Positions 1,260 to 23,570 of a stretch of 64,000 nt of DNA are shown here, in pieces (position 1 is the first letter of the stretch; every line of letters starts with the position of its first letter). The stretch is from Candidatus Eiseniibacteriota bacterium. Lineage in GTDB: Bacteria; Eisenbacteria; RBG-16-71-46; CAZAMP01. The stretch spans positions 1,312,001-1,376,000 of the forward strand of contig OZ245046.1 in NCBI GenBank assembly GCA_965224245.1, given 5' to 3'. The position numbers were made by a program, and so were the translations under genes. The notes beneath the pieces were generated by a model. It did not search any database. It was not told where the DNA came from and saw only the letters and a program-made list of their open reading frames with translations.

Positions 1260-1346
1260 TCAGCGACGCAGCCACCACAAGAGGTCGATCGACATCGCCA
1301 GGATGACCACGAGCGCCAGAGCGGGGACAGACGCGAAGACAAACAT
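1260..1346 (-). CDS. Small 28-aa single-TM peptide MFVFASVPALALVVILAMSIDLLWWLRR (not in ORF track)
   Basis: AGGAGG 4 nt before ATG at 1346, TGA at 1262-1260, hydrophobic core with WW and basic tail, two upstream promoters. Confidence 0.6.
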   Translation of the reverse strand: MFVFASVPALALVVILAMSIDLLWWLRR

Positions 1347-1436
1347 GTTCCCTCCTACGGCAAGGCCCAGAGGTCGCGTCACATCCACCCTCACCCCTCC
1401 TCACTTCGAGACGCGCGAGCGCGCCTCTACGTCCGT

Positions 1437-1464
1437 AAATCGGCTCGATCTCGCGAGTGCTTTA
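1437..1464 (-). promoter_or_regulatory. sigma28 (FliA/SigD-type) promoter
   Basis: Minus strand cTAAAg...GCCGATTT with 16-nt spacer (TAAA-N16-GCCGATTT). Confidence 0.7.
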
Positions 1465-1485
1465 GGACGTGTCGACGGTGTGCAA

Positions 1486-1501
1486 TGCAAGGCACGGGCC
1501 A
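1486..1501 (-). promoter_or_regulatory. sigma54 -24/-12 promoter
   Basis: Minus strand TGGCCCGTGCCTTGCA (GG-N10-GC). Confidence 0.7.
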
Positions 1502-2189
1502 GCGCCTGCTCGGGCCATTCGCATCCGCCGGCGTTCCAAAGGATTACGGTGTGACGAGAAGGACGGTGGGGTCGCGAGCGGCCGCTCGCTCCGGTCGGGA
1601 ACCGTCCATCGCGCCGGTTCATCCCGACCAGGAATGAGCCAGCGACGGGAATCGAACGTGTACCCGGGTACACGTTCGCCCATGAAGACCTCCACGTCCA
1701 CGCTTCCGGTTGAGCCCTGCGCACGGAGTGCGCGGCAAGCGCGATCGAGAAAACGGACCGGGAAGATGGAATGGACGTCCTCGGAAGGACCGTGTCGCGA
1801 CACATGAGCGCCGCAGTCGTCACCTTACCGTGGCGGATCGTTGCTCATCAGCACCGCTCCGATGAGATCCCCGTCGTCGTCGTGGACCTCTCGGCGCAGG
1901 AGACGCAGCACGTCCGGAAGCTCCTGGCCATCCACCGGCACGTCGCGGGCGGCGCTGCTGGTCCCGGCGTGCAGGCGCGCCGTGCACGAGCAAGTCGATG
2001 ACGTGACCTCGGTCGCAGACGGAGATCGAGCGATTCGCCAGTCGACCGACCGGATGGGTTCCCGTCTATCGTGGTGGTGATCTCGCCGAGCGTCCCCGGC
2101 GCCGTCCGTTGCCGCACGGCCCGCGAGTGGTACGTCGACGGCACGTGCCTCGATCGAGTGAGCGAGTCCGGTGCCGGGACGAGACGCCC

Positions 2190-4679
2190 TCAGGAGAGCT
2201 TGGCCACGATCAGCGTGACGTCGTCCTCGGCGTCCCCGTCGGCGAAGTCGGCCGCGGCGTCGACGATCAGCGTTCGGAGCTCGGACGCCGACCGATCTCG
2301 ATGGGCCTGCACGAGCGCCACCACCCGGTCCTCGCCGAACTCGAGATCGCCGTGGTGCGTCTCGATGAGCCCGTCGGTGTAGAACACGATGACCGTGCCC
2401 GGCTCGGGCTGGAGCGTCTCGTGACGATACGACGCGGCCCGGTCGATTCCGAGGAGCAGCCCGCCGGTGCTCATCTCCAGCACCTCGCCCTCGGGCGGCA
2501 CGACCAGCGGCGGGGGATGCCCCGCGTTCGCGAAGGTGGTGGCCAGCGTGTCGGGATCGATCGTGGCGCAGAAGAGCGAGACGAACTGACCGGGCTCGAT
2601 GCTCTCGCAGAGCCGATCGTTCACGCACGCCAGGAGCTCGCCCGGCGTATCGTGTCGATCGGACTCCGCGCGAAGCGTCGCATCCACCGACGCCATGATC
2701 AGCGCGGCGGGCACGCCGTGCCCGGACACGTCTCCCACCGCGATGCCGAGGCGCCCCCCGGGCAGCTCGGTGTAACGGTAGAAGTCGCCGCCGACCTCGG
2801 TGCACGTCCGCGTTCCGCCGGCGATCTCGATCCGATCCAGCCGGGGATCCCGGTCGGGGAGGAGCTTCTGCTGGATGTCGCGCGCGACCGCGAGCTCCCT
2901 CGCGATGCGCTCCTCGTCCACGCGGCGCGCGTGGGAGATCGCGTTGCGCATGCCGACCTCGGCCTGGCCGGCGATCGACTGCAACAGCTCGAGGTCCTCC
3001 AGTCCGTACGACTCGCCGCCACGCCGGCGTCCGAGCGCCAGGACCGCCAGCATCTCGCGACGTCGACCCAGGGGGACGAGCACGCCGCCGTGGAACACGT
3101 TGAGGATGCGCTCCTCGGCGTCGCCGAGCTCGCCGAAGGGGAGGCTCTCCTCGATGTCGGTGGAACGGAGCGGTCGCGACGCGGTCGTGACGGTGTCGAG
3201 AAGCCGGGCCGGAAGCGGCGGGAGATCCAGATCCTCCAGCGGAAGCCCCGAGGCGTATGCCATCCGGAACTCGCCGCCACGCTGGCTCGCGTCGTCGGGC
3301 CGGAGGAAGATCGCGGCCTCGCGAACGCGGAGCGTGCGCGAGAGCTTGTCCACGACCGAGGACAGGAGCCCCCCGAGGTCGAGGATGCTCGGCAGCTCCC
3401 GGCCGAGCTCGCGCAGCATGCGCCGCTCGTCGTAGCGATCCCGGAACAGCGTCCGGTCGACGAGCCGTTCGATCCGGTGGCGAAGCGGCGTGAACACGGC
3501 GGCCACCGTCACCAGCGACAGGACCATGATCCAGCGGTTGCGCTCGCCGGTGGCGTTCTCGAGCACCCGCCCGAACACGATGTACACCCCCGACGTGATC
3601 AGGAAGAGACACGCGGTCAGGAGCGAGAAGGCCGCGCTCCGCTTCACCACGATCTCGATGTCGAGCACGCGATGGCGCACGATCGCGTACGCGAAGCTCG
3701 CGGGCATCACCAGAAGTCCGACCACGGCGACGTTCACGTACGTCGACCAGGAGTTCGGCCACACCAGGTGCACCGCGGTGCCGAGGAGGAGCGGCGCGAC
3801 GCCGACGAGCGTCCCCACCAGGACCACCGTGTAGCGCCGCCGTTCGGCTCGCGAGCGCACGCCCACGTAGCCGACCACGAAGCTCACGAGTGCCAGCGCG
3901 GCATACACCACCAGCGACAGCCCCGCGAGCACGTTGACCGCCATCGTCGCCAGCACGACGCCGGGCGGATGCCAGAGCCGCGCCGTGAACACGTACGCCA
4001 CCACCGGCAGCGCGATCAGCGCCGGAACGTAGAGCCACCGGAGCACCGGGGGATGCGCGCGCACGACGCCCGAGAGTCGCGGGAACAGCAGGAAGAAGTG
4101 CAGGATCACCGGCGCCAGGAGGAGCGCACCCAGCGACCGGCACAGCGCGAAGACCAGCGGCGCCACCGGTGGCGACTCGGGTGCGATCGGCAGCAGGACG
4201 AGCGAGAACGCGCTGCAGAACGCGAAGAACAGCAGCGTCAGGCGCCCCTCGATGTGGAGCGCCGCGTAGAGTCCGATCAGCAGGAACCCGATGCCGGTCA
4301 CGAGGCGCGCCAGGCGGGAGAGCCGCTCGTGGGCGTGAATCGCGGTGGCGTCCACCGAGATCGGCAGCGGGCCGTCCGGCGTGATCAGATCGAGCCGCGG
4401 CGTGCGCCCGAGAGCGCCGGAGTAGAAGTAGTCGTTCAGGAACGGGACGAGCGCATCGATCGGCTGATCGTTCACCCCGACGATGCGCGCGCCGACCGGG
4501 ATCCCGGCCCGCTCGCCCGGGCCGTCCGCGTCCAGCGAGACGATCCGATCGCCCTGGAGCGTCACCCCGAAGTACGGCTGATCGAAGAGAGCCTCGCCGC
4601 TCGCCGCGTAGAGCACGATGAGGAAGAGCCCCCAGGCGATGGCCAGGCGTTTTCTCCGACCGGCGTGGCGCGCTCTCAT
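2190..4679 (-). CDS. Membrane PP2C/SpoIIE-family (RsbU-like) phosphatase with N-terminal PDZ, multi-TM and GAF-like domains; start uncertain (ORF open to 4793)
   Basis: EVGGDFY, VGDVSGHG, ANAGHPPP, YTDGLIE and DDVTL motifs; PDZ-like GPGERAGIPVGARIVGVN; about 8 TM segments. Confidence 0.9.
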   Translation of the reverse strand: MRARHAGRRKRLAIAWGLFLIVLYAASGEALFDQPYFGVTLQGDRIVSLDADGPGERAGIPVGARIVGVNDQPIDALVPFLNDYFYSGALGRTPRLDLITPDGPLPISVDATAIHAHERLSRLARLVTGIGFLLIGLYAALHIEGRLTLLFFAFCSAFSLVLLPIAPESPPVAPLVFALCRSLGALLLAPVILHFFLLFPRLSGVVRAHPPVLRWLYVPALIALPVVAYVFTARLWHPPGVVLATMAVNVLAGLSLVVYAALALVSFVVGYVGVRSRAERRRYTVVLVGTLVGVAPLLLGTAVHLVWPNSWSTYVNVAVVGLLVMPASFAYAIVRHRVLDIEIVVKRSAAFSLLTACLFLITSGVYIVFGRVLENATGERNRWIMVLSLVTVAAVFTPLRHRIERLVDRTLFRDRYDERRMLRELGRELPSILDLGGLLSSVVDKLSRTLRVREAAIFLRPDDASQRGGEFRMAYASGLPLEDLDLPPLPARLLDTVTTASRPLRSTDIEESLPFGELGDAEERILNVFHGGVLVPLGRRREMLAVLALGRRRGGESYGLEDLELLQSIAGQAEVGMRNAISHARRVDEERIARELAVARDIQQKLLPDRDPRLDRIEIAGGTRTCTEVGGDFYRYTELPGGRLGIAVGDVSGHGVPAALIMASVDATLRAESDRHDTPGELLACVNDRLCESIEPGQFVSLFCATIDPDTLATTFANAGHPPPLVVPPEGEVLEMSTGGLLLGIDRAASYRHETLQPEPGTVIVFYTDGLIETHHGDLEFGEDRVVALVQAHRDRSASELRTLIVDAAADFADGDAEDDVTLIVAKLS

Positions 4680-4920
4680 GGGTGCGGAGAGTCTCCCGTC
4701 TGGGAAGCGTGTCGCGGTCTCAGGCTCGCGCATCGTACCACGAGCAGCCGTGGGCCCCGGCGGTGGACAGGATCTGGCCACACCGGTCGACAACTGACCT
4801 CCGCGTGGCGATCGGGGCGTGGGCGCGAGCGGCGCCCCAGCACGCTGCGCAGATCGGTCGCCGTTGCCAGGTGCCGGCGGAGCGCCAGGCCGGCGATCCG
4901 GTCACCGGCTGGCGAACGAC

Positions 4921-4936
4921 TGGCACATCGATTGCA
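4921..4936 (+). promoter_or_regulatory. sigma54 -24/-12 promoter of the flgN-fliW-csrA unit
   Basis: TGGCACATCGATTGCA, near-perfect consensus, 40 nt before AGGAGG-ATG. Confidence 0.85.
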
Positions 4937-4976
4937 ATGTGCCGGGAGCTCCGAGACTCCGTCGTGAGGAGGCCGA

Positions 4977-5504
4977 ATGAAGTCGACGTTCCCGAGCATC
5001 GCGAGCGGGACGCGCGGACTCGCCGATCCGATCGGAATGCCCGACGGGCGAGACGCGACACCCCCGCCATCCGAGACGCTGGCCCGGCTGGAGGACCTCC
5101 TGTGGCGGGAGCTGGATCACTATCGCGAGCTCTGCGACGTGCTGGCGCACGAGACCGGGATGCTCGAGGCCGATCGGCCCGAGGCGCTCCCGCCCCTGTT
5201 CGAGGAAGAGACCCGGATTCTCGAGGATGCACGCGATCTTGCGCCCCAGCGGACGCAGGCGCTCACGGAGGTGTCGGCGGCGCTCGGTGCGGCGCGAGCC
5301 CTGACGCTCGTGGAGGTGGCCGAGCGTCTCGAGGGTGACGAGCGGGTTCGACTGGAGAAGCTGCGTACCGCCCTCGCCCACATCGTGGCGAGAGTCGATC
5401 GGATCAACCGGACCAACCTGCTGCTGATCCGCAACCGCATGAGCCTGGTCCCGGCGTCCATGCACGCGATCCTCGAGGAGGCACCGTCTCGAACGGTCGT
5501 GTGA
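4977..5504 (+). CDS. flgN: FlgN-family flagellar export chaperone
   Basis: Helical protein with LxxLLxxExxxYxxL and LxxxVxxVxxINxxNxxLI pattern; adjacent to fliW/csrA. Confidence 0.7.
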   Translation: MKSTFPSIASGTRGLADPIGMPDGRDATPPPSETLARLEDLLWRELDHYRELCDVLAHETGMLEADRPEALPPLFEEETRILEDARDLAPQRTQALTEVSAALGAARALTLVEVAERLEGDERVRLEKLRTALAHIVARVDRINRTNLLLIRNRMSLVPASMHAILEEAPSRTVV

Positions 5505-5679
5505 GCCGGGGATCCGCCGTGAGCCGGGATGGCCGGATGCCGGTGCGCCCGCGTCGCCAGCCGCACCGACGCAGGGAGTGCTCCAGATGTCGGCCCGGAT
5601 GTCCGAGCTGTATCACAGGGCGGTGCCGATAGTCCGTCGCTCGGCCAGGATGGCCGATTGGTCCGGGAGGCCAAGGGAC
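5505..5679 (+). promoter_or_regulatory. GGA-hairpin array (putative CsrA-binding leader of fliW-csrA)
   Basis: 8 GGA motifs in 175 nt, including TCGGCCA-GGA-TGGCCGA (5641-5657), GCC-GGGAT-GGC and GCA-GGGAG-TGC; the last overlaps the RBS. Confidence 0.6.
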
Positions 5680-6126
5680 ATGGAGATCCAGACGCGGTTG
5701 TTCGGAACGATCGAGGTCGGGAACGAACGCCTCATCACGTTTCCAGGAGGCCTCGTCGGCTTCGAGGCGTGCACGCGCTTCGTGCTCGTCGAGTCCGAGG
5801 AGCTCGAGCCCCTCAGATGGCTGCAGTCGGTGGACGTGCCTCACCTGGCGTTTCCGATGGCCGACCCCGGCTACTTCATCGACGACTACGAGGTGCGGAT
5901 CACCGGCGACGACGAGGACATCCTCGACGTCGACGAGGAGTGCGACGAGATCGTGACGCTGGTGATCGTGACCCTGCCCGACCGGACGCACCCGGTCCGC
6001 GGCAACCTTCGTGCACCGATCGTGATCAATCTGAGCAATCGCATCGGTCGGCAGGTCGTGCTCAGCGACGAGACCTACGGCTACTGCCAGTCGAGCCTGG
6101 CGGAAGCGGCGCGCGTCGAGAAGTAG
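5680..6126 (+). CDS. fliW: Flagellar assembly factor / CsrA antagonist FliW
   Basis: TRLFGTIEV, ITFPGGLVGF, WLQS, NLRAPIVIN and GRQVVL motifs. Confidence 0.95.
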   Translation: MEIQTRLFGTIEVGNERLITFPGGLVGFEACTRFVLVESEELEPLRWLQSVDVPHLAFPMADPGYFIDDYEVRITGDDEDILDVDEECDEIVTLVIVTLPDRTHPVRGNLRAPIVINLSNRIGRQVVLSDETYGYCQSSLAEAARVEK

Positions 6127-6135
6127 GGGGAGAGC

Positions 6136-6387
6136 GTGCTGGTTCTGACGAGAAAGCCCGGCGAGAACATCCGGATCGGGTCCGACGTCGTGATCACCGT
6201 GCTCGGAGTGCGGTCCGGTCACGTGAAGATCGGGATACAGGCGCCTCGCGGCATCCCGGTTCATCGGGAAGAGGTATACGAGAAGATCGCCGAGACCAAT
6301 CGCGATGCGACGCGCCAGACGACCGACGATGCCGGAGAGGCCGCCCGGCGCGTTCGCTCGAAGCTGGAGCTCCCGCCCGAGGACTAG
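6136..6387 (+). CDS. csrA: Carbon storage regulator CsrA
   Basis: MLVLTRKPGENIRIG...VKIGIQAPRGIPVHREEVY; C-terminal extension typical of FliW-regulated CsrA. Confidence 0.97.
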   Translation: MLVLTRKPGENIRIGSDVVITVLGVRSGHVKIGIQAPRGIPVHREEVYEKIAETNRDATRQTTDDAGEAARRVRSKLELPPED

Positions 6388-6465
6388 ACCGTGTGCGACC
6401 CGTCGGCGCTCCCGATTCGACGGGGTGAGCTCGAACGGTCCACCGCCTTCTGGCAGAGATGGGGC

Positions 6466-6493
6466 TAAAGACCGGGCCACGTGCTGACGAAGA
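6466..6493 (+). promoter_or_regulatory. Putative sigma28 promoter of the flagellin-like gene
   Basis: cTAAAg with 16-nt spacer then GACGAAGA (5/8 match to GCCGATAA). Confidence 0.45.
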
Positions 6494-6554
6494 GTGCGGT
6501 GTGGCCCGACCGGTGGCCGCTTTGAACCACCACCCTCGGCACGGAGGAGCGCAC

Positions 6555-7310
6555 ATGACGTGGGCGGCATCCCGGATCCGACCGGACGACGGCCGGCGGC
6601 CGTCGCCCGACCTCGATGGCGACGTCGTCCTGCGCCAGCTCCGACTCGCCGAGTGCCGCCGACGCAACGGCCCCGTGGAGGACGTCGCCCGGAGATCCAT
6701 CGCGCCGGAGGCGAAACCGGTGGCGATCTCCGACGTCCCGCGGCGTCCGGGGCATTCCGTGAACACGCGACACGTGTGCGACGGCCTCGACGAGGCCAGA
6801 GACCTAATGGCGGTCGGGGAAGCCGCGCTCCGTCGGATCGACGACATCCTGACCGAGATCAGCGTGAAGATCACACGCACGGCATCTGGCGTGACCGAGG
6901 TCGGCGAACGCGAGGCCGCCTCTGCGCAGCTGACCGCGATGGTCGCCGAGATCGACGCGATCTCCGCCGAGACGAGATTCGACGGGGTCGAGCTGTTGAC
7001 CGGTGGTACGGTGCTGGTGTTCGCGGTGCGAGGACGGACGATCGTCACGTATGCGACGAACGCGTTCGACGCGGCGAGCCTCGGCATCCGGATCGGGTCG
7101 CGCACGAACCGCGATGCGATCGATCCGGCCAGCGACCCGACGTGTCTGAACGAGGTCGAGACGGCCCGCGTGCGCGTTCACGAGGCCATGGCCTCGCTCC
7201 GCTCCGTGATCGATCGCATCGCCATCGAGGAGCGTCTGATCCCGACGACCGACGACGAGTCCCGGGTTGCGTTCAGCCGCGGTGAGGATGCGGCCCCGCT
7301 CGCGGGGTAG
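6555..7310 (+). CDS. Degenerate flagellin-like protein (N-terminal helical D1 region kept, D0 termini absent)
   Basis: ARDLMAVGEAALRRIDDILTEI...EIDAISAETRFDGVELLTG matches the flagellin N-region; CLNEVETARVRV..SLRSVIDRI resembles the start of the C-region; RBS GGAGG before ATG 6555. Confidence 0.75.
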   Translation: MTWAASRIRPDDGRRPSPDLDGDVVLRQLRLAECRRRNGPVEDVARRSIAPEAKPVAISDVPRRPGHSVNTRHVCDGLDEARDLMAVGEAALRRIDDILTEISVKITRTASGVTEVGEREAASAQLTAMVAEIDAISAETRFDGVELLTGGTVLVFAVRGRTIVTYATNAFDAASLGIRIGSRTNRDAIDPASDPTCLNEVETARVRVHEAMASLRSVIDRIAIEERLIPTTDDESRVAFSRGEDAAPLAG

Positions 7311-7611
7311 AGCGAATCCGGCAGGCGCCGGGACCCGGACGGCTGGATCGCCGCGGTGCTGGCCCATGCCGGCCCGCTCGTGCGCGATACGTCGAAGCGG
7401 CGTGGTGGATGGCGAAGAGATCGGTCCGACCGGCCGAGAACGAGTGTGAGCCGGCGCGCGACCCGTCGACCCGAGTCGACGTCGCGAGGCCGCCGCTCTT
7501 CACAGGGTCGGCCATCCCCGATGACGCGGGGATCGCCGGAGGACGGATGGGTCCCGCACCCGCGATGCCAGCGGTGGTGCGGTCGTGAGTCGATGAGGGT
7601 GGAGGTGCATC

Positions 7612-7827
7612 GTGAGCACCGAGCACGACACGGCGTCCGGCGACGAGCTTCGGGTGGTGCCCGGCGGCGCGCCGCTCCCGGAGTCCGAGGAGAACCGATC
7701 GGACGAGGATGGTGTCCGGGCGCGCAAGGTCGCCGAGGCGCGGCTGAAGATCATGAACGCGTACTATTTGCGCGAGGACGTTCGACGAGAGCTCGCCGAG
7801 CGGCTGATCCTGGCGCTGGGCAGCTAG
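7612..7827 (+). CDS. flgM: FlgM-like anti-sigma28 factor
   Basis: Disordered acidic N-half plus VRARKVAEARLKIMNAYY...ELAERLI resembling the FlgM sigma-binding C-terminus; RBS GGAGGT. Confidence 0.6.
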   Translation: MSTEHDTASGDELRVVPGGAPLPESEENRSDEDGVRARKVAEARLKIMNAYYLREDVRRELAERLILALGS

Positions 7828-7985
7828 CCCCGGTCGGCCGGACGCCGACACGCATCCCTGGCCGCGCAACGGCTTGGGCCAGGCCCGGTTGAACCGATCC
7901 GGCTCGACTGGTAGGATGCCCGCCGCTTCGGGTTTGCGCAGCTCGCGAAACCCCCTCGCATCGTCCCCGAGCCGAGGAGAGTGGC

Positions 7986-9608
7986 GTGACGGGCTCGGTG
8001 AGCACGTCCGAGAGTGGTCCGTCGTTCCGGGACCGTCGCTCCCCATCCGCAGCCCCGCGCCGCGAGCCGCCGTCGCGGCTGGCGCTGTGCCGCGAGCTTC
8101 TCGTCGGCCTCCACGGTGCGAGCGGCTTCGTCCTCCTCACGTCCCGCGACACCCGCCGCCATCGGGTGTTCGATCACCTCGGCGTCACCCCCTCGGACGC
8201 CGACCGCATCGCGCGAGCGCTCGACGGCTCGGACGTCGTGGCACGCTGGCACCGCGATCGCTGGCCCGAGCCCGACGTCCTCGACGCGGGCGACGTGCTG
8301 ATGACCGACCCGGAGTCGCTCGTGTCACCGGGGAGCGTCGTGCCCCGCCTCGCGCTGCCGCTGGTCGCGGACGGCGAGGGCGTCGGCGTGCTCGTGTGGG
8401 AGTCGGACGTGCCCCCGATCGGATCGCCGGCGCGCCTGTCGGCGCTCCTCGCGGGGGCCGTCGTGGATGCGCGGCACGCCGCCGCCCTCCACACCGACAA
8501 CGAGCTCGCCCGCTCGCTCTTGCGCGAGGTGTCGGTGGGTCTGATCGCGATCGATCCCGTGGGACGCGTGACGTATCTGAACGCGGCCGGCGAGCGCATT
8601 CTGGGCGTGGCCGCGGGAGAGGCCGTCGGGGCCGATTCGCTGCGCGTGTTCCGCACGCTCGTCGACGGTGAGAACGTCCTGTTGGACGGTCTCGAGGCGG
8701 ACCTCCCGGGGATGGAGGTCTGGCTCCGGCGGGGCGACGGTCGCGAGATGCCGGTGAACCTCGAGATCTCCCCGATCCGCGACAGTAGCGGGGAGACGCT
8801 CGGCGCGGTGGGCACGTTCCAGGACTTCTCCGAGATGCGGAGCATGCAGGAGCGCCTCCGGCACCGCGATCGCCTGGCCACGATCGGGGAGCTCGCCGCC
8901 GGCATCGCGCACGAGATCGGAAACCCGCTGACCGGCATCCGGGGCTGCGCGCAGGTGCTGGGTCGGCGATTACCCGAGGGCGACGGGTCGCACGACCTCA
9001 TCTCGGCCATCCTGGAGGAGGTCGACCGCCTCGGTCGACTCTCCAAGCAGATCCGGCACTACGTGCGGCCGCGTCCTCCGGAGATGGCGCGCGGAGACGT
9101 GAGCACCGCCGTCGAGCGCGTGCTGACGATCGTCGAGCCGCGCCTGGACGAGCTGGGGATCTCGGTGCACTGGTCCCGACCCACGCTGCCCGAGATCTAC
9201 TTCGACCCGGACCAGATGCAGCAGGTGATCCACAATCTCGTCCAGAACGCGGTGGACGCGATGGCGGACGGGGGCGGACGGCTGGAGATCGGCGCGAAGC
9301 TCGTCACCCGCTCGGTGTCGGCCCCCCGCCGGGGGCGGCGGGCCACCGATCGCACGGCCGACGCCCCGCGACAGGCCGAGCGGGAGTACGTGCGGATCAC
9401 GGTATCCGACACGGGGCAGGGCATTCCGGCCGACGTCGTTGAGCGCGTCTTCAATCCGTTCTTCACCACGAAGTCCACCGGGCTGGGCCTGGGCCTCAGC
9501 ATCAGCCAGACCGTGGTGACCGAGCACGCCGGGTTCCTGTCGGTCGTGAGTCAGGCCGCGAAAGGGACGACGTTCACGCTGGATCTTCCGGTCGATAGGA
9601 GAGCGTAG
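7986..9608 (+). CDS. PAS-domain sensor histidine kinase (NtrB/FlgS-like)
   Basis: PAS, H-box AGIAHEIGNPL, N-box NLVQNA, DTGQGI, FNPFFTTK, GLGLGLS. Confidence 0.93.
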   Translation: MTGSVSTSESGPSFRDRRSPSAAPRREPPSRLALCRELLVGLHGASGFVLLTSRDTRRHRVFDHLGVTPSDADRIARALDGSDVVARWHRDRWPEPDVLDAGDVLMTDPESLVSPGSVVPRLALPLVADGEGVGVLVWESDVPPIGSPARLSALLAGAVVDARHAAALHTDNELARSLLREVSVGLIAIDPVGRVTYLNAAGERILGVAAGEAVGADSLRVFRTLVDGENVLLDGLEADLPGMEVWLRRGDGREMPVNLEISPIRDSSGETLGAVGTFQDFSEMRSMQERLRHRDRLATIGELAAGIAHEIGNPLTGIRGCAQVLGRRLPEGDGSHDLISAILEEVDRLGRLSKQIRHYVRPRPPEMARGDVSTAVERVLTIVEPRLDELGISVHWSRPTLPEIYFDPDQMQQVIHNLVQNAVDAMADGGGRLEIGAKLVTRSVSAPRRGRRATDRTADAPRQAEREYVRITVSDTGQGIPADVVERVFNPFFTTKSTGLGLGLSISQTVVTEHAGFLSVVSQAAKGTTFTLDLPVDRRA

Positions 9609-13979: not shown

Positions 13980-13992
13980 CATCAATGAATTA
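13980..13992 (+). promoter_or_regulatory. IHF-like site upstream of a sigma54 promoter
   Basis: cATCAATGAATTA (one mismatch to WATCAANNNNTTR). Confidence 0.5.
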
Positions 13993-14086
13993 CATGGAAC
14001 GTCGCGAAACTGCTCGAATGGGATGCGGCGTCGATGGGAGGCCGGGGAACTCGGTCGAGAGCGGTCAGCCCGGCAGACGCAGGCCG

Positions 14087-14102
14087 TGGCCCGCAAGTTG
14101 CT
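14087..14102 (+). promoter_or_regulatory. sigma54 -24/-12 promoter of the fliA unit
   Basis: TGGCCCGCAAGTTGCT. Confidence 0.75.
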
Positions 14103-14161
14103 CTTTACGCGGGTCCCCGTCGAGGGGTGCTCCCGATCCCGATCCGAAGGAGACGACGCAC

Positions 14162-16249: not shown

Positions 16250-16432
16250 CCGCCGACCGGAGCGGGATCCGCGGCCTGCTCCGTCTCCGGCGGGGGCGGC
16301 GGGGCCGCGACAGCGGGTCGGAGTGAACGAGCTCTCGATGGGTGAGTGTGAACGGATACGCGCCTCGGCGCGGTGGTCGCGCGCGAAGGCGCGCGCAGTC
16401 CCACGCGGTCCCCGAGCCGCGAGGAGGGGTTC

Positions 16433-17677
16433 ATGAAGAAGCGGAACGGAAGCGGATCGCGGCGGCTCGTGGAGATGACGGCCAAGTTCCAGGATTCCCA
16501 GCATCAGCTCATCGACACGTTGAGCAAGAAGGGCATGATCGCGGCGACCGAGCTGAAGCGACTCTCCAGCGCGGTCGATCGGGCGGTGTCCCAGAAGCGA
16601 TCGTCGGACGTTCTGGACACGGCGACGTTGCTCCACGAGCGTGTCGTCCAGGCGCTCGACACGTCGATCGACGACGTGCCCGAACAGCGCGAGGCGCGCG
16701 AGATCGAGGTCCTGGGAGCCCTCGTGGCGCTCGTCCAGTCGACCGGTGATCACCGCACGATCTTCGACCGCTCGCTGACGCTGCTCCAGGGCGCCATTCC
16801 GTTCCAGAACGGCACCCTCTTCCTGTACGACCGGACCGAGCAGGAGCTCGAGCCGGTGGCCATCGTCGGACAGCGCGTGGATCTGATCGGAGGCGTTCGC
16901 TTCGAGAAGGGCGCGGGCCTGAGCGGCTGGGTGGCCAAGAAGAAGCAGCCGATCCTGATCTCCGAGCTCGCCCGCCCGCCGCGACCGGACGAGCCCGCGA
17001 TCCGCTCGTTCCTGTCGATGCCGCTGGTGGTCCAGGGCGAGATGATCGGTGTCCTGAACCTCGGACATGCCACGCCGCGGACGTTCGACGAGGTCCATCA
17101 GCGTTTCGTGGGCCTGTTCGGCGCCATCCTCGCCGGGGTTCTCGAGCGTGCGCTGACCGAGCGCGAGCTGCGCCGGCAGACCGTCTGCGACCGGCTCACC
17201 GGGGTCTACGGCCGCCGCCACTTCCAGGAGCGACTCGACGCCGAGATCGAGCGCGCGCGGCGCCACTACCAGCACTTCTCGCTACTGTTCCTGGACGTCG
17301 ACGACCTCGATTCGTTCAACACGCGCTACGGACACCAAGCCGGCGACCGGGTGTTGATCGAGGTCAGCAAGGTGCTCCAGCGCTGGTGCCGGGCGTCGGA
17401 CATCGTGGCCCGGTACGGGGGCGAGGAGTTCGTCGTACTGATGCCACAGACGGACCCCGACGAGGCGGGCATCGCCGCCGAGCGCCTGCGCCGGGCGATC
17501 GAGACACACACGTTCCCGCAGAAGCGCCGCGTGACGGTCTCGGTGGGCGCGGCGGCGTTCCCGGGCGACGCCGACACCGACCTCGATCTCCTCGCCAAGG
17601 CCGAGCAGGCGCTGTTCATGGCCAAGAAGGACGGTCGCAACCGGGCCCTGGCGTTCAGCGCGCTGGCGATGCACTAG
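16433..17677 (+). CDS. GAF-GGDEF diguanylate cyclase
   Basis: DRLTG, FNTRYGHQAGD, RASD I-site, RYGGEEF; GAGGAGG RBS. Confidence 0.92.
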   Translation: MKKRNGSGSRRLVEMTAKFQDSQHQLIDTLSKKGMIAATELKRLSSAVDRAVSQKRSSDVLDTATLLHERVVQALDTSIDDVPEQREAREIEVLGALVALVQSTGDHRTIFDRSLTLLQGAIPFQNGTLFLYDRTEQELEPVAIVGQRVDLIGGVRFEKGAGLSGWVAKKKQPILISELARPPRPDEPAIRSFLSMPLVVQGEMIGVLNLGHATPRTFDEVHQRFVGLFGAILAGVLERALTERELRRQTVCDRLTGVYGRRHFQERLDAEIERARRHYQHFSLLFLDVDDLDSFNTRYGHQAGDRVLIEVSKVLQRWCRASDIVARYGGEEFVVLMPQTDPDEAGIAAERLRRAIETHTFPQKRRVTVSVGAAAFPGDADTDLDLLAKAEQALFMAKKDGRNRALAFSALAMH

Positions 17678-17815: not shown

Positions 17816-19597
17816 GTGGGCCAGATCGACGATACACGATCCCGAGACGACGGACGCCGACCGGACGGGGGCGGCGGCGACCCGAACGATCCCGCGCGCC
17901 GCCTCCTGGTCGTCGACGACGATCCCCACGTGCTGGAGGTCGTCTCCGAGCTCTTTGCCTCCCACGGCTACTCCATCGCCGAGGCCACGAACGCGCGCGA
18001 CGCGATCGCGCTCCTGGACGCCGAGGAGTTCGACGGCGTCGTCACCGACCTCAGCCTCCGTGGCGACAGTGGCCTCGACGTGCTCCGGGCCGCGCGGCGT
18101 CGAGACCCGGACGCGGTCGTCGTGCTCGTGACCGGCTTCGCGTCGGTCAGCACGGCGATCGGCGCGCTCCGGGAAGGCGTGTACGACTACCTCACCAAGC
18201 CGTTCGATCTCTACCAGCTCAGCCAGGTCGTCGAGCGCGGGATCGCCGCGCGCGAGCTGGCGCGCGAGAATCGCCGTCTCGTGTCCGACCTCCGGGCCGC
18301 GAACGCGCGGCTGCGCTCGCAGGAGGAGGTCCTCGAGGCCAAGGTCCGCGAGGCGACCGCGCGCCTCCGCACGCTGTATGCGGTGGCCCGGGATGCAACC
18401 GGCGAGCTGGACCTGACCGGCGCGCTGGAGCTGATCGTGACCAACGCGGTGCGGCTCGTGCACGCGCAGGTCGGTCTCGTGTTCGTCCCCGACGAGGACT
18501 CCGGCGGCCTGCGCTGTGCGATGGCTCACGGTCTCGGCGGGGAGGCGCACGCGGTCACGGCGGCACCGGTGACCGGTGGTCCGCTGTACGTGGCGCTCCA
18601 GGAGCGACGGGCGTTCCACTGGCGACCGGCCGGCGGCGATGGCGTGAGTCCCCACGAGCGGATGCTGTCGCAGGCGCTCGATCGGGACGCGCTCGTGGCC
18701 CCGCTGGAGTTCAAGGGAGAGGTCGTGGGGCTCCTGGTCATCGGCGACCCGTTCGACGATCGGTTCGACGACGATGCGATGGAGCTCCTGACGCTGTTCG
18801 CGCTGCAGGCGGCGAACGCGCTGGGCAACGCGCGCCAGCACGAGGCGCTCAAGGACGTCGAGCAGCTGAAGTCGGACTTCGTGGCGATGGTCTCGCACGA
18901 GCTCCGGACGCCGCTGACGGCGGTCAAGGGGAGCCTGGATCTCCTCGACGCCGAGCTTCACGATCGTGTCGACGACGGGCAGCGCGACCTCCTGCGCATC
19001 TGTGACGCGAACTGCAAGCGTCTCCTGTCGATCGTGAACGACGTCCTCGACTTCAGTCGACTGGAGGCCTCCCGGCTTCCCCTGCAGCTGGCGCCGGTCG
19101 ACGCCTGGCCGCTCATCCATGCCGCGGCCAAGGACATGGAGGCACTGGCGGCGGAGTCCGAGGTGCACATCCGCTGCGACGTGGGCGAGAACCTCCCGCA
19201 GGTCGTGGCGGACGAGATGCGAATCTCGCAGGTGCTCATGAACCTGCTCTCGAACGCGATCAAGTTCTCGCCGGACGGTGGGGAGGTCGTTCTCCGCGCA
19301 CGAGCCGCTCACCCCGACGGGCTCGAGTTCACGGTCGTGGATCACGGGTGTGGGATTCGCGCGGCGGACATCCCGAATCTCTTCCAGCGCTTTCGCCAGC
19401 TCGACGGCGGCGCCGCCCGGCCCGTCGGCGGCACCGGGCTCGGGCTGGTGATCTCGAAGTCGATCGTCGAGGCTCACGGTGGCCGGATCTGGGTGGAGAG
19501 CGAGGAGGGGGTGGGCAGCACCTTCGGCTTCATCTTGCCCGCCGATCCGCTCGACGCGACCGAGACCGACACGCCGCGGCTGGCCAGCCTCTCCTGA
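17816..19597 (+). CDS. Hybrid sensor kinase (REC-GAF-HisKA-HATPase)
   Basis: VVDDD/TD receiver, VSHELRTPL, NLLSNAIKFS, GTGLGL. Confidence 0.92.
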   Translation: MGQIDDTRSRDDGRRPDGGGGDPNDPARRLLVVDDDPHVLEVVSELFASHGYSIAEATNARDAIALLDAEEFDGVVTDLSLRGDSGLDVLRAARRRDPDAVVVLVTGFASVSTAIGALREGVYDYLTKPFDLYQLSQVVERGIAARELARENRRLVSDLRAANARLRSQEEVLEAKVREATARLRTLYAVARDATGELDLTGALELIVTNAVRLVHAQVGLVFVPDEDSGGLRCAMAHGLGGEAHAVTAAPVTGGPLYVALQERRAFHWRPAGGDGVSPHERMLSQALDRDALVAPLEFKGEVVGLLVIGDPFDDRFDDDAMELLTLFALQAANALGNARQHEALKDVEQLKSDFVAMVSHELRTPLTAVKGSLDLLDAELHDRVDDGQRDLLRICDANCKRLLSIVNDVLDFSRLEASRLPLQLAPVDAWPLIHAAAKDMEALAAESEVHIRCDVGENLPQVVADEMRISQVLMNLLSNAIKFSPDGGEVVLRARAAHPDGLEFTVVDHGCGIRAADIPNLFQRFRQLDGGAARPVGGTGLGLVISKSIVEAHGGRIWVESEEGVGSTFGFILPADPLDATETDTPRLASLS

Positions 19598-19649: not shown

Positions 19650-19676
19650 TAAAGATAGGGCTCCGGCGATCGATCC
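19650..19676 (+). promoter_or_regulatory. Weak sigma28-like promoter upstream of glycan genes
   Basis: TAAA-N15-ATCGATCC; overlaps a TTGACA. Confidence 0.3.
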
Positions 19677-19774
19677 ATAGAAAGACGTCGCTCGCGAACG
19701 GAGGTCCCCGTCGGGGCCGTTCGCCGGCGATCCGCGATCGATCGCGGCTCTCGCGAATGCAGGAGGAGTGCCCC

Positions 19775-20920
19775 ATGCAGGTCCCGCTGATCGACGTGTC
19801 GCGCCAGCACCACGTCGTGTCCGACGAGCTGCAGGCTCGTTGGCGTCAGATTCTGTCGTCCGGAGCCTTCGTCGGCGGGCCGTTCGTCAGCGAGTTCGAG
19901 ACCGCGTTCGCGGAGTATCTCGGCCTGGATCACGTCGTCGCCGTGTCGTCGGGAACCACCGCGCTGCACCTCGCGCTCCGCGCCCTGGCGCTGGAGCCGG
20001 ACGACGAGGTGATCCTGCCCACGAACTCGTTCGTGGCCACCGCCGAGGCGGTCGTGCTCGCCGGCGCGACTCCCGTGTTCTGCGACGTGGATCCGGACAC
20101 CGCGCTGATGACGCTCGACACGGTGCGCCCGCACGTCACCGACCGGACGCGCGTGATCGTTCCCGTCCATCTCTTCGGCAACGTCGTGGACATGGACCCG
20201 CTCGTCGCGTTTGCCGCGGCGCGGGGTCTCACGATCATCGAGGACGCCGCCCAGGCTCACGGGGCGGTCTACGAGTCGGCCGGTCGCGAGGGCCGTGCCG
20301 GGACGCTCGGGCACATGGCGTGCTTCAGCTTCTACCCGACGAAGAACCTGGGCACGGTGGGCGAGGGTGGCGCGGTCTCCACCGGAGACCCCCGGCTCGC
20401 CGAGCGCGTGCGGGCGCTTCGCGACCACGGCCAGTTCGAGAAGCACGTCCACCTGTGGGTGGGCGACAACGGGCGGATGCCGGCGCTGCAGGGCGCCGCT
20501 CTGGGCCTGAAGCTGCCGAGTCTGGATCGCGGAAACGCACGGCGGCGCGAGATCGCGACGATCTACCGGGCCGCGCTCTACGATTCGCCGTTCGTCCCGA
20601 TCGCTCAGCCCGCGTGGAGCGAATCGGTCTATCACCTGTTCGTGGTCCGCGTCGCGAAACGGTCGAGGTGTCGCGAGATGTTGACCGAGAACGGTGTGGC
20701 GACGGCCGTGCACTACCCGACACCGATTCATCTTCAGCCGGCATTCGCCCGCTGGAGCGCGGGCGCCAGATCGCTTCCGGCGGCCGAGGCGCTCTCGGCG
20801 GAGATCGTCTCGCTGCCGATGTTTCCCGAGCTGAGCGACGTGGAGCTCGAGCACGTCCTGAGGACGCTGCGCGTGGTCGGTGAGCGCGTAGCGCGGGACG
20901 CGATCTCCGCCGCCGCCTAG
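19775..20920 (+). CDS. DegT/DnrJ/EryC1/StrS family aminotransferase
   Basis: SSGTTALHLAL, IIEDAAQAHGA, FSFYPTKNLG..GEGGA. Confidence 0.95.
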   Translation: MQVPLIDVSRQHHVVSDELQARWRQILSSGAFVGGPFVSEFETAFAEYLGLDHVVAVSSGTTALHLALRALALEPDDEVILPTNSFVATAEAVVLAGATPVFCDVDPDTALMTLDTVRPHVTDRTRVIVPVHLFGNVVDMDPLVAFAAARGLTIIEDAAQAHGAVYESAGREGRAGTLGHMACFSFYPTKNLGTVGEGGAVSTGDPRLAERVRALRDHGQFEKHVHLWVGDNGRMPALQGAALGLKLPSLDRGNARRREIATIYRAALYDSPFVPIAQPAWSESVYHLFVVRVAKRSRCREMLTENGVATAVHYPTPIHLQPAFARWSAGARSLPAAEALSAEIVSLPMFPELSDVELEHVLRTLRVVGERVARDAISAAA

Positions 20921-20946
20921 CGTCGCGTTTTCGCGGCGAGGACCTC

Positions 20947-22515
20947 ATGCACGCGCTGCCCTGGATCGACCCGGAGCCCGACTCTCCGTCCCTCGCGCTG
21001 GCACCGTGTCCGGGTGTGCGCGAGCGCGTCTCCGCCCGGCGGCGGCTGTCTCGCGCCGCACTGATCGCCGACGCGGCCGCGATGACCGCGGTGACGGCCG
21101 TAGCCGCGCTGGTCGCGTTGCTGTGGCCGTCGCTTCCGCGCGCGGGTGCGGTCCCGGCCGCTCTCGTCGTCGCGACCGTGTTCGCGGTCAACGCGATCTC
21201 GGATCGATACCGCTGGGTCACGCTCACCGATGCGTCGGATCGGCTCCGGGCGCGTCGCACCGCGGCCGTCGGCATCGGGATCTCGGCACCCCTGGTCGGG
21301 GGCGTTGCGGCCGGGCTGGCGACGCTCGGCGGGCAGGCGCTCGACGCGCTGGTCTGGACCGAGGCGCTTCTCCTGGGTGCGATCCCGGCAGTCGAGTCCG
21401 CGCGAGCGGTGATCGCACGCGTCGTGCTGCCCCCGCTCCGAGACGCGGTCCGCCGCCGCACGTTGCTGGTGTCGGACGCGGTCGGGCCCACGGACGCGGA
21501 CGTTCCCGATCTGATCTGGAACCGTCCCGGAGGCGCCGGATACCCCGCCGATCCCTGGTACGAGGACGTGCTGATCCCGTGCGAGCTCTCGCTCGCGGGG
21601 GCGGCGCGGGTCTCCGGAGCCGGCGCCCTCGCGCTTGCGCCCGAGCACGACGTCGTCACGCACGTCGTGCACGAGGTCGTGCGATCAGGCGCCGATCGCG
21701 TCGTCATCGACGGGCTCGGGGACGCCTCGCGCGAGCTCATGGATCTCGCGGTCGGCGTGGCGGCTCGCGGGATCGACGTCTGGGTGGCGTCGACTCTCTG
21801 CGACGCCCTCCGCGGTCGCGTGACGGGACCCGGTCGCGACGGCGTCCCGCTCCTCCGCGTCCCCGGCGCCGCCGCTCGCGCGCGAGGGGCGCGACTCCGA
21901 CGTCTGCGAGACGTCGTGGGAGCCGCGATGGGTCTCGCGCTGGCCAGTCCCCTCCTGATCGGGCTGAGCGTGCTGATCGGAGTGACCAGCCGGGGGCCGA
22001 TCCTGTTCCGTCAGACCCGGATCGGCCGGGACGGGCGGCCGTTCACGTTCTTCAAGTTCCGCACGATGGTGCACGGCACGCCGCCGGACCGGCACCGTGC
22101 GTACGTCACGGATCTGATGCAGTCCGGCCGTCCCGCCGGCGCCGACCCGAACGGGACGGCCGTGTTCAAGCTGGTCGACGACCCCCGCGTCACCCGCGTC
22201 GGCCGCTTCCTGCGCCGGACCAGCCTCGACGAGCTCCCGCAGCTGCTCAACGTGTTGCGCGGCGACATGAGCCTCGTCGGACCGCGCCCCTGTCTTCCGT
22301 ACGAATGGGAGCTCTACGACCCGTGGCAGCGGGTCCGTCTCCGGGTCACGCCCGGATGTACCGGTCTGTGGCAGGTGACCGGTCGGAGCCGCGTGAGCGT
22401 GGACGGCATGATCGTCCTGGATCTTCACTACATCGCCACCCGCACGTTCTGGCGAGACGCGTCGCTCATCCTGCGAACGGTTCCGGTGATGGTGTGTGGG
22501 CGGGGAGGGCACTAG
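20947..22515 (+). CDS. Polyprenyl glycosylphosphotransferase (bacterial sugar transferase, WcaJ/ExoY-like)
   Basis: [48 protein letters not shown]. Confidence 0.92.
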
Positions 22516-22517
22516 GC

Positions 22518-23570
22518 ATGACACGAGCGAACATGAAGGTGGGCGTCGTCGGTTGCGGCTACTGGGGACCGAACCTCGTCCGGAACCTGGTCGCGCACGA
22601 GCGGTGCGACGACGTCGTGTGCTGCGACACGGACGTCTCGCGGCTGAAGCTGGTGAAGAGGCGCTATCCGTCGGTGTCGGTCCTGACCGATGCCGACGCG
22701 ATGCTGGCCGACGAGACCGTGGATGCAGTCATGGTCGCCACGCCGCTCACTCAGCACTACCCGCTGGCCAGGGCGGCGCTGAACGCCGGCAAGCACGTGT
22801 TCGTGGAGAAGCCGTTCACGGGCTCGTCGGTCGACGCGCGGGAGCTCATCGGACTGGCGCGGGCGAGAGGCCGGACGTTGATGGTCGGGCACACGTTCCT
22901 GTACAGCGCGCCGGTGCGCAAGATCAAGGAGCTGATCTCGCGAGGCGAGCTGGGAGACATCCACTACATCGCCATGAGCCGCGTGAACCTGGGACTCCAT
23001 CAGACGGACATAAGCGTGGTCTGGGATCTGGCGCCGCACGACTTCTCCATGCTCCTCTACTGGCTCGACGAGCTGCCGATCGAGGTGACGGCCATGGGAC
23101 AGGCCTACGTCCAGTCCGGCATTCCCGACGTGGCGTTCATCAATCTCCGATACCCGTCGGGCACCATCTGCAACGTGAACGTCTCGTGGCTGAGCCCCTC
23201 GAAGATCCGGCAGACCACGATCGTGGGGTCGCGCAAGATGCTGATCTACGACGACACGAGCACCAGTGAGCGGGTGAAGATCTTCGACAAGGGCGTCGAC
23301 TATCGCGACCCGGCGACTTTCGGCGAGTTCCAGCTCTCCTATCGCACCGGCGACGTCGTCTCACCCCGGCTCGAGACCGCCGAGCCCCTCTCGGTGGAGA
23401 TCGGCGAGTTTCTCAGGGCGATCGAGACCGGCCGGCCGCCGCTCACCGACGGGGCGAACGGGCTGGCGGTGGTGGAGATGCTGGAGAGCGCCGAGCGCTC
23501 GCTCGTCGAGGCGAGCCGCGGCCGAACCGCCCGGATTCCGGACCGGGAGCTGGCGCCGTCGCTCGAGTGA
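22518..23570 (+). CDS. Gfo/Idh/MocA oxidoreductase (sugar-nucleotide dehydrogenase type)
   Basis: GVVGCGYWGPNL, KHVFVEKP, WDLAPHD. Confidence 0.9.
   Translation: MTRANMKVGVVGCGYWGPNLVRNLVAHERCDDVVCCDTDVSRLKLVKRRYPSVSVLTDADAMLADETVDAVMVATPLTQHYPLARAALNAGKHVFVEKPFTGSSVDARELIGLARARGRTLMVGHTFLYSAPVRKIKELISRGELGDIHYIAMSRVNLGLHQTDISVVWDLAPHDFSMLLYWLDELPIEVTAMGQAYVQSGIPDVAFINLRYPSGTICNVNVSWLSPSKIRQTTIVGSRKMLIYDDTSTSERVKIFDKGVDYRDPATFGEFQLSYRTGDVVSPRLETAEPLSVEIGEFLRAIETGRPPLTDGANGLAVVEMLESAERSLVEASRGRTARIPDRELAPSLE

Follow-up and report, generated by a model that had tools for sequence, protein, structure and literature searches.

A flagellar control cluster left without its flagellum in a Candidatus Eiseniibacteriota genome and probably kept for another output

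The DNA analysed here is a stretch of 64,000 nucleotides, hereafter the window (G000:C1:1312001-1376000, where G000 is this genome; positions are window positions unless marked), from a Candidatus Eiseniibacteriota bacterium, and it carries a cluster of flagellar control genes in a genome in which no flagellar apparatus was found. The genome comprises 6.94 Mb with about 70% G+C in 27 contigs and is 97.39% complete; the cluster lies on a contig of 6.45 Mb. Because the high G+C content makes most long open reading frames (ORFs) spurious, genes were called by third-position G+C, and they were named with Pfam and NCBIfam. The cluster includes FlgN, FliW, CsrA, a flagellin relic, a small FlgM-like protein, a PAS histidine kinase with an NtrC-type sigma-54 activator, a receiver protein with part of a CheB-like domain (pseudo-CheB) and a FliA/WhiG sigma-28 factor, followed by a GGDEF diguanylate cyclase, a hybrid kinase, a DegT aminotransferase and a priming sugar transferase (Table 1). 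A sequence-only reading of the window had named these genes, and all of them are present where it had placed them. Genes for ValRS, a DUF4139 protein and UvrB come next after an ORF without assigned family (the last in Table 1), and the cluster therefore ends at that ORF.

The same reading had held that the regulators are accompanied by no structural apparatus, and this is borne out for the whole genome. Profiles for FHIPEP/FlhA, Flg_bb_rod, YscJ_FliF and FliG_C, all four of which match in control genomes, returned no match anywhere in G000, and no flagellar structural gene was found in the window (MotA and MotB, which are ambiguous with ExbB/TolQ, were not searched as families). A complete flagellar set elsewhere in the genome was looked for and none was found, the sole Flagellin_N match being the window's own gene. 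MCPsignal has no match in the whole genome either, and RpoN is present in a single copy.

The relatives used for comparison form a panel of 41 genomes of one class, G000 and 40 others, among which G001 is the sole other member of the family of G000. G001 has FlhA and two flagellins, and 80 kb around its locus were compared with G000 in both directions, including by tblastn. Gene order is unchanged: every window gene from the phosphatase through the hybrid kinase has its G001 counterpart, 27-81% identical. Between these shared genes G001 carries five blocks, with 24 Pfam-named flagellar genes in total, that have no counterpart anywhere in G000, and tblastn of the G001 flagellar proteins against the whole G000 genome found none of them. 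The blocks hold FlgF, FlgG, FlgA, FlgI and FlgJ (block 1, in which one ORF straddling two pieces was unscanned); FlgK and FlgL (block 2); an 800-residue GT2-TPR protein and the second flagellin (block 3); FliS, FliD and FlaG (block 4); and, over about 19 kb from a 168-residue ORF through fliF to flhA-flhF, FliF, FliG, FliH, FliK, FlgD, FlgE, FliL, FliM, FliN, FliP, FliR, FlhB, FlhA and FlhF (block 5). The earlier proposal that only regulators were kept is thus matched by five gaps that lie where G001 has its structural genes. A tblastx comparison of intergenic stretches with the G001 region, made for deletion scars, gave only scattered, composition-driven matches of at most 37 bits.

Judged by gene order, this comparison shows that the flagellum was lost after the lineage of G000 had split from that of G001, through at least five separate deletions that left every regulator with its promoter where it had been; since its sister still has a flagellum, the loss postdates the origin of the family. 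We therefore read the cluster as the remainder of an ancestral flagellar super-operon after deletion of its structural genes, with the circuit kept and its output probably non-flagellar, and give this reading a probability of about 0.7. The kept control genes most likely switch something other than a flagellum.

A congener from which dN/dS could be calculated was not found in metagenome scans, in which the best FliA is 72% identical and the flagellin relic has no relative. We therefore used a relative-rate test of the Tajima type, in which residues changed uniquely in G000 are set against those changed uniquely in G001 with orthologues as outgroups. The numbers of unique changes in G000 and G001, respectively, are 13.4 and 13.8 for FliW (5 outgroups), 4.5 and 4.5 for CsrA (6), 6.6 and 10.1 for FliA (14), 39.9 and 31.9 for the activator (9), 25.0 and 21.9 for the PAS kinase (7), 25.2 and 23.8 for the GGDEF protein (13), 39.4 and 40.8 for the hybrid kinase (12), and, with a single outgroup each, 60 and 63 for the phosphatase and 1 and 6 for the FlgM-like protein. 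No regulator is accelerated. The flagellin copy changed about five times faster in G000 than in G001 (70-86 versus 11-18 unique changes with 5 outgroups; chi-square 32-58 per outgroup). Relative rates close to 1 agree with the earlier claim that the kept regulators are not decaying; by this measure they are maintained, and FliW and CsrA, under unchanged constraint, probably act on non-flagellar mRNAs.

The core of the cluster is retained across the class. FlhA was found in 14 of the 41 panel genomes, and FliA/WhiG scores over its cut-off in 39, including all 27 without FlhA; FlhA is present in both genomes that fall short of the cut-off (G027 and G033). CsrA is present in 28 genomes, 15 of them among the 27 without FlhA. 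The fliA locus was compared in 15 genome loci, 12 of them non-flagellated. Behind fliA, all 15 have a homologue of the GGDEF protein (in three loci of family f11 only its N-terminal half is matched) and 12 have the hybrid kinase; ahead of it, the PAS kinase and activator are found in 9 of the 12 non-flagellated loci. Bac_transf comes after the hybrid kinase in G002, G021, G006, G020 and G013, two of the five being flagellated, and in metagenome loci L062 and L078. A homologue of the last ORF of the cluster follows Bac_transf in the first four of these genomes and in both metagenome loci; the G013 locus ends within Bac_transf. Altogether, at least 10 other families have non-flagellated genomes that keep the core. 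G013, 99% complete and with no FlhA, rod or flagellin match, still has the phosphatase, FliW, CsrA, a sigma-28 box, the FlgM-like protein, the kinase, the activator, pseudo-CheB, an FlhG-like ATPase, FliA, the GGDEF protein, the hybrid kinase and Bac_transf.

A metagenome scan with FliA yielded 80 loci, of which the 24 of at least 9 kb were compared. FliA is at least 54% identical in 18 of these, and 16 of the 18 show the GGDEF homologue downstream; the other two stop short, less than 1 kb past fliA. The remaining six, with FliA 45-48% identical, show no such synteny. FlhB-FlhA-FlhF lie upstream only in L062 and L063, and L059 and L060 have the order FliW-CsrA-kinase-activator-FliA with no flagellar genes nearby. 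In six loci fewer than 100 nt separate fliA from the GGDEF gene.

The sequence-only reading had taken the cascade to be rewired to cyclic diguanylate (c-di-GMP) and surface-glycan genes. This part does not stand: FliA, the GGDEF gene and the hybrid kinase also adjoin in flagellated members (G001, G006, G014, G020 and L062), sometimes together with Bac_transf, so the tie was kept and not rewired, and it predates the loss. The regulatory skeleton without a flagellum is real but not peculiar to this genome, since the 41 genomes and the metagenome loci make the core the rule in the class. Within this class-wide pattern, G000 is best regarded as a case that is recent and unusually complete.

Some further features of the panel loci are recorded here. 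In G032 the FlhA match (G032:C1:1165015-1166966) is split over three reading frames and looks like ongoing flagellar decay. Seven flagellated genomes of four families (G010, G016, G017, G024, G028, G032 and G036), all without FliW, have two FliA-family genes, one beside FlhA and one of the class-wide type, suggesting that flagellar loci of two types exist in the class. G021, which has neither FlhA nor flagellin, contains a lone rod-family (Flg_bb_rod) ORF of 270 residues (G021:C18:81210-81302). In G013 an FlhG/MinD-like ATPase with a Walker A motif (L024 about 13022-14323) lies directly before fliA, where G000 has the FlgV-like ORF; it is reminiscent of FleN, which L. longbeachae has retained. 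Nine soil contigs (L028, L035, L071, L079, L082, L083, L088, L099 and L101) have a conserved ORF of about 300-320 residues between fliA and the GGDEF gene, the place of the gene for a helix-turn-helix-containing membrane protein (TM+HTH; TM, transmembrane) in G000 and G001.

Table 1. Genes and promoter motifs of the cluster and its left neighbour, in window positions
Feature	Position	Strand	Basis or remark
Phosphodiesterase/sulfatase-superfamily gene	72-1103	+	Convergent to micro-ORF
Hydrophobic micro-ORF, 28 codons, AGGAGG ribosome site	1260-1344	-	Read from sequence
Tandem motifs, sigma-54-like (TGGC-N7-TTGC, 1501-1487) and sigma-28-like (TAAAG-N17-CGAT, 1464-1439)	1439-1501	-	
Membrane GAF-PP2C (SpoIIE-type) phosphatase	2190-4793	-	Pfam SpoIIE 6.6e-50 and GAF; G001 53% identical, collinear
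Sigma-54 motif TGGCAC-N5-TTGCA, 42 nt upstream of flgN	4921-4935	+	
FlgN	4977-5504	+	Pfam PF05130, 61.2 bits (cut-off 30.5), 2e-16; G001 45% identical
FliW	5680-6126	+	PF02623, 114.8 bits (cut-off 25)
CsrA	6136-6387	+	TIGR00202, 79.3 (cut-off 70.1); NF002469, 83.9 (cut-off 73)
Sigma-28 motif CTAAAGAC-N15-CGAA	6466-6491	+	
Flagellin relic, 251 codons	6555-7310	+	Flagellin_N profile positions 67-136 only, 2.8e-7
FlgM-like small protein	7612-7827	+	Orthologue alignment
PAS-HisKA-HATPase histidine kinase	7986-9608	+	Pfam; G001 52% identical
NtrC-type sigma-54 activator (REC-AAA-HTH)	9608-11074	+	Pfam and NCBIfam; G001 60% identical
Sigma-54 motif upstream of pseudo-CheB	11111-11125	+	Orthologous motif at G001 region coordinate 43179
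Receiver with partial CheB-like domain (pseudo-CheB)	11255-12061	+	Pfam
Homologue of G001 AMIN/TPR protein	about 12051-13727	+	tblastn, 33% identity over G001 residues 5-476
Sigma-54 motif TGGCCCGCAAGTTGC upstream of FlgV-like gene and fliA	14087-14101	+	
Small two-TM protein, FlgV-like	14163-14446	+	Translation; 35% identical to ORF preceding G001 fliA
FliA/WhiG sigma-28 factor	14466-15245	+	TIGR02479, 259 bits (cut-off 189.6); G001 81% identical
Membrane protein with C-terminal HTH-like domain (TM+HTH)	15281-16249	+	Translation; weak DUF2802 and DprA_WH matches; G001 27% identical
GAF-GGDEF diguanylate cyclase	16373-17677	+	Pfam GGDEF 3.9e-44
REC-GAF-HisKA-HATPase hybrid kinase	17816-19597	+	Pfam
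Sigma-28-like motif TAAAG-N16-CGAT, 107 nt upstream of DegT	19650-19674	+	
DegT aminotransferase	19757-20920	+	Pfam
Bac_transf priming sugar transferase	20947-22515	+	Pfam
ORF without assigned family	22496-23269	+	

The flagellin gene had been described as truncated, and the loss of its C-terminus is real: Flagellin_C has no match in it, and by alignment the last 33 residues are missing, and with them the C-terminal D0 helix. Truncation alone is nevertheless an incomplete description, and degenerating is the more accurate word. The relic starts from the ATG at 6555 behind a GGAGGAG ribosome site and is in frame and collinear with flagellins of 279-280 residues. Of the 28 N-terminal columns invariant in seven related flagellins it keeps 9, and prolines and charged residues stand in place of the conserved motifs, so that the conserved N-terminal D0/D1a helix is not preserved; in the part from D1b to D1C it keeps 29 of 53 such columns, and it has an 11-residue insertion. 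In the middle region its identity to G001 is only 40%, less than the 47-59% between G001 and the flagellins of other families.

The leader of the gene has changed as well. The flagellin leaders of the flagellated relatives share a hairpin (GGGTATGGACACCC and variants) whose loop contains GGA, together with a GGA-containing ribosome site, the classical CsrA arrangement, and in the leader of the G000 relic the hairpin GGA is gone. In B. subtilis, according to the available text of PMC6070490, the N-terminal 72 residues of flagellin suffice for binding of FliW and a second site lies in D1-C; the part that FliW would need most is accordingly the most degraded part of the relic. A predicted complex of FliW with the relic (alignments A2 and A3) scored 0.08 and 0.00, which speaks neither for nor against binding. 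With the C-terminal D0 helix missing, the N-terminus degenerate and the leader hairpin lost, the flagellin-FliW-CsrA checkpoint is not intact. The flagellin copy is a degenerating relic, probably on its way out, and FlgN, a chaperone of FlgK and FlgL, both of which are absent here, is perhaps another.

FliW itself keeps all 17 columns that are invariant in 7 orthologues, and csrA starts 10 nt past its stop codon; the NCBIfam models of FliW reach 5.7e-35 but stay under their equivalog cut-offs (120 versus 223). A scan of genome contigs with FliW found distant phyla only. A 2026 survey predicts, in the part of it that is available, that CsrA homologues of Eisenbacteria rarely repress the Bacillus flagellin leader (PMC13443453), which fits a change of CsrA targets if the Eisenbacteria label is right.

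The sigma factor has all of Sigma70_r2, r3 and r4. Its collinear orthologue in G001 comes after FlhA, FlhF and a small ORF and is thus the sigma factor of a flagellar operon; in the Protein Atlas, the clusters nearest to the window FliA are commonest in Acidobacteriota. For the FlgM-like family, six orthologues were aligned, four of them from non-flagellated genomes (alignment A1), and three of the six match Pfam FlgM (PF04316; best E 5.4e-5). The best solved-structure match of the family profile is FlgM (9wsf_B, E 0.011), and the protein is a probable anti-sigma-28 factor on this sequence evidence. The FlgV-like protein, directly before fliA, has by eye two TM helices, the second with an intramembrane Arg, and a polar tail. 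A sub-module of flgV, sigma-28 gene and TM+HTH gene in flagellar super-operons is described in the available part of PMC11607428, and the two-TM and TM+HTH ORFs that flank fliA here fit it, FlgV membership being judged by description only. The TM+HTH protein has a Protein Atlas score below 0.9, which is a lead only. Its translation, the sole one inspected for the motif of an RsiG-type c-di-GMP-binding anti-sigma, showed none by eye, which is no real test.

In pseudo-CheB, an Ala is aligned at the position of the acceptor Asp of solved receivers, and CheB_methylest matches with 18.9 bits, under its cut-off of 24, over profile positions 3-80 of 174. With a partial, sub-cut-off CheB domain, an Ala for the acceptor and a genome without methyl-accepting chemotaxis proteins, it cannot be a receptor methylesterase. 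The window homologue of the AMIN/TPR protein behind it has no Pfam match; the AMIN and TPR domains are seen in the G001 protein. In the cyclase the GGEEF and RxxD motifs are intact (RASD....RYGGEEF in translation). The phosphatase is a conserved flank, and a homologue of it adjoins FliW and CsrA in G013 and CsrA in G009. The micro-ORF has a counterpart in G001 (27 codons, L023 about 5863-5946) in the same place, with a DLLWW motif in common and the same tandem promoters. Compared with G001, the first gene of Table 1 is probably inserted, lying as it does between the cluster and the homologue of the gene that comes next in G001. At the other end, G001 lacks DegT, Bac_transf and the last ORF in the corresponding place, and ValRS comes after its hybrid kinase.

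The order of the cascade can be read from promoter motifs. TGGC-N7-TTGC, the sigma-54 motif, occurs 189 times in the genome, and five of these sites fall in the window's first 15 kb, where about 0.4 are expected. Four of the five stand before the micro-ORF (1501, minus strand), flgN (4921, a perfect TGGCAC-N5-TTGCA), pseudo-CheB (11111) and the FlgV-like gene with fliA (14087), and the fifth, at 12314, is intragenic. G001 has counterparts before three of these units, namely the micro-ORF (TGGCAC-N5-TTGC and a ...GCCGATGA motif), pseudo-CheB and the FlgV-like gene with fliA, and further ones before its rod, fliF and flhB operons. The flgN motif resembles the ACTGGCACA...TTGC that heads the rod operon of G001, which suggests that deletion joined the rod-operon promoter to flgN. 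TGGC(A/G)CGCAAGTTGC, nearly identical to the motif at 14087, is found in G001, G011, G037 and G018; TGGCACGCAAGTTGCT lies upstream of fliA in G011, G037 and G018, and with other TGGC-N7-TTGC variants in G002 and G021 this makes 5 of the 12 non-flagellated loci.

For sigma-28, the consensus upstream of the flagellins of G001, G027, G020, G014 and G033 is CTAAAG, 16-17 bases and CGA(A/T/G). The strict form TAAAG-N16/17-CGAW occurs 17 times genome-wide, with three sites in the first 20 kb of the window (expectation about 0.05 by our own arithmetic), and on the main contig it is rarer than in shuffled sequence (12 observed versus 27-35). The wider form TAAA-N15-19-CGA gave no further site in the first 24 kb. 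The site at 6466 before the relic has the same CTAAAGAC box and spacing as a site upstream of one G001 flagellin gene. Among non-flagellated relatives, G013 has the same sigma-28 box directly after csrA and ahead of the flgM-like gene, G002 has it before its flgM-like gene, and G021 has it before fliA. The genome-wide scan that had been recommended for both motifs thus shows them to be strongly over-represented in the cluster and also conserved in G001, and the proposed order from sigma-54 to sigma-28 is upheld by conserved motifs, including the one before the FlgV-like gene and fliA; that the promoters are active we infer. The proposed link to DegT likewise gains a sigma-28-type motif upstream of that gene.

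Among the sites outside the cluster, three are plausible and intergenic. One, TAAAG-N16-CGAT at G000:C1:4867662 (L051 1662), is about 200 nt upstream of a bactofilin gene (L051 1863-2219; Pfam 2.3e-26) and marks a possible sigma-28 target. The other two, 8 kb apart at G000:C1:5663336 (plus strand) and 5671108 (minus strand) (L052), face genes for exported proteins, one without a Pfam match and the other of 841 residues with CarboxypepD_reg and SdrD_B-like domains.

From gene content and motifs a circuit can be proposed. The PAS kinase would phosphorylate the NtrC-type activator, which with RpoN would fire the sigma-54 promoters before flgN, the pseudo-CheB and AMIN/TPR pair, the micro-ORF, and the unit of FlgV-like gene, fliA and TM+HTH gene. 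FliA, restrained by the FlgM-like protein, would then fire the sigma-28 promoters before the relic, the micro-ORF and the operon of DegT and sugar transferase; the promoter of the relic probably also drives the flgM-like gene behind it. The surviving output would most likely be c-di-GMP and surface sugar synthesis, as adjacency and one promoter motif suggest, that is, a lifestyle decision over c-di-GMP and cell-surface polysaccharide that the flagellar cascade would always have co-regulated. A stronger form, for which we see little probability, takes the cascade of the whole class as a lifestyle switch containing a sigma-28/c-di-GMP unit, in which FliA and the GGDEF cyclase would share a transcript in several genomes, with FliW-CsrA and FliA-FlgM as partner switches independent of export. 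Candidates for release of FlgM or FliW would then be c-di-GMP, the PP2C phosphatase, or the relic acting as a sink for FliW, and CsrA would globally regulate surface polysaccharide and cell shape under the control of sigma-28, for which boxes lie before DegT and bactofilin.

Other explanations of the cluster have to be set against a circuit kept for a non-flagellar output. The genes might be leftovers of a recent decay, not yet deleted and without function. The degenerating flagellin and the still flagellated sister, which makes the loss younger than the family, speak for this, and so does the distribution of two further genes. FlgN, present in 11 of the 41 panel genomes, is found among the 27 without FlhA only in G000, and since no other non-flagellated panel genome has it, it may simply be decaying; FliW, present in 9, is kept in just two of the 27 (G000 and G013), which makes a long-term need for it doubtful. 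We nevertheless hold functionless decay to be quite unlikely, as FliW, CsrA, FliA, the kinase, the activator, the GGDEF protein and the hybrid kinase evolve without acceleration beside an accelerated flagellin, as five deletions took structural genes and spared every regulator, and as the same core persists in the non-flagellated genomes of other families with conserved promoter motifs. It is very improbable that the flagellar genes merely sit on contigs absent from the assembly, through an error of assembly or binning. In a 97.39% complete assembly of 27 contigs some 2-3% may be missing, but the places that these genes take in G001 lie, in G000, within unbroken sequence of a 6.45-Mb contig, and a single contig of a public sequencing run spans positions 4900-9600 (4.7 kb) with 0 differences; a hole in the assembly therefore does not account for the absence. 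Contigs from two public runs gave identical DNA of the same organism and unrelated kinase fragments, with no usable variants.

The function might also be confined to the class-wide core and CsrA, with FlgN, FliW, the relic, pseudo-CheB, the FlgV-like gene and the micro-ORF as passengers that share transcripts or promoters. The positions of some genes favour this: in G000 the flgM-like gene has no separate sigma-28 box and is parted from the sigma-28 promoter by the relic, while in G013 it comes directly after the box and no flagellin intervenes, and the FlgV-like gene is interposed between fliA and the sigma-54 promoter. We find it doubtful all the same, because FliW is unaccelerated and persists in G013, L059 and L060 with no flagellar genes nearby, and because pseudo-CheB is kept in G013 and G002. 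The points made above on FlgN and FliW also weigh against a circuit kept for a non-flagellar output, and others join them. All promoters are motif matches. The window's FlgM-like protein has no Pfam match of its own, and for FlgN no outgroup aligned by tblastn, so relaxed selection could not be assessed. The relative-rate test uses a single sister genome, dN/dS being impossible without a congener. TAAA-N15-19-CGA has no site before mglA/mglB in G000 and none inside the GGDEF gene, and since no motif of the DegT type was found before Bac_transf in the relatives examined, the link to glycans depends on a single site.

A published description of this cluster was not found; the literature searched, which did not extend to supplementary tables of single genomes, held only Legionella and general work on loss of motility. 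For a tree-of-life survey, the available text gives FliA matches in 41% of non-motile genomes (PMC12199754). The closest precedent is the non-flagellated Legionella. According to the available part of PMC5655016, an L. longbeachae subclade lacks the flagellar regulon and keeps FliA, FleN and FleR/FleS, and L. oakridgensis keeps functional FliA and FlgM, the latter apparently degraded and not secreted. As in that account, the structural regulon is lost here and sigma-28, an FlgM-like protein and a sigma-54 two-component pair are kept, and without a basal body to export FlgM its control would go another way. In contrast to what is described there, the present case concerns an uncultured member of another lineage and a retention that is class-wide instead of limited to a few species. 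The module includes FliW-CsrA, the FlgV-like and TM+HTH proteins, pseudo-CheB and a flagellin relic, FliA is physically coupled to the GGDEF protein and hybrid kinase, and a flagellated collinear sister shows the deletions.

Streptomyces sigma-WhiG, a sigma factor of the FliA/WhiG family for development, is controlled via c-di-GMP, and it resembles the present FliA in working without flagella and in its association with c-di-GMP. It differs in that the neighbour here is FlgM-like and no RsiG-like anti-sigma was found (in the TM+HTH protein, by eye only), the c-di-GMP link is one of adjacency, and sigma-54 lies upstream. With the Hag-FliW-CsrA system of B. subtilis, as described in the available text of PMC6070490 and PMC6529632, the cluster shares adjacent fliW and csrA upstream of a flagellin gene with a sigma-28 promoter, and the flagellated relatives share the GGA hairpin and GGA ribosome site of the leader. 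It differs in its degraded flagellin N-terminus, the loss of the upstream hairpin and the lack of an export apparatus by which the loop could be relieved. The super-operons of PMC11607428, in their available description, share the two-TM and HTH flanks of fliA; here the sub-module stands without any flagellum.

What sets this case apart is the lineage, the breadth of retention, the unchanged FliW-CsrA beside a decaying flagellin, the coupling of sigma-28 to a cyclase at the level of the operon, and the collinear flagellated sister. G000 and G001, with their genes in the same order, form a natural experiment that separates what was dispensable (the structural genes, flagellin and probably FlgN) from what was kept (sigma-28, its anti-sigma factor, the sigma-54 pair, FliW-CsrA, the cyclase and the kinase). 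It makes testable how FlgM and FliW are controlled without secretion and what CsrA targets in place of flagellin. Flagellar loss is recurrent among the 41 genomes, and that all 27 without FlhA keep FliA argues that the cascade always had a second output and points to c-di-GMP and surface polysaccharide.

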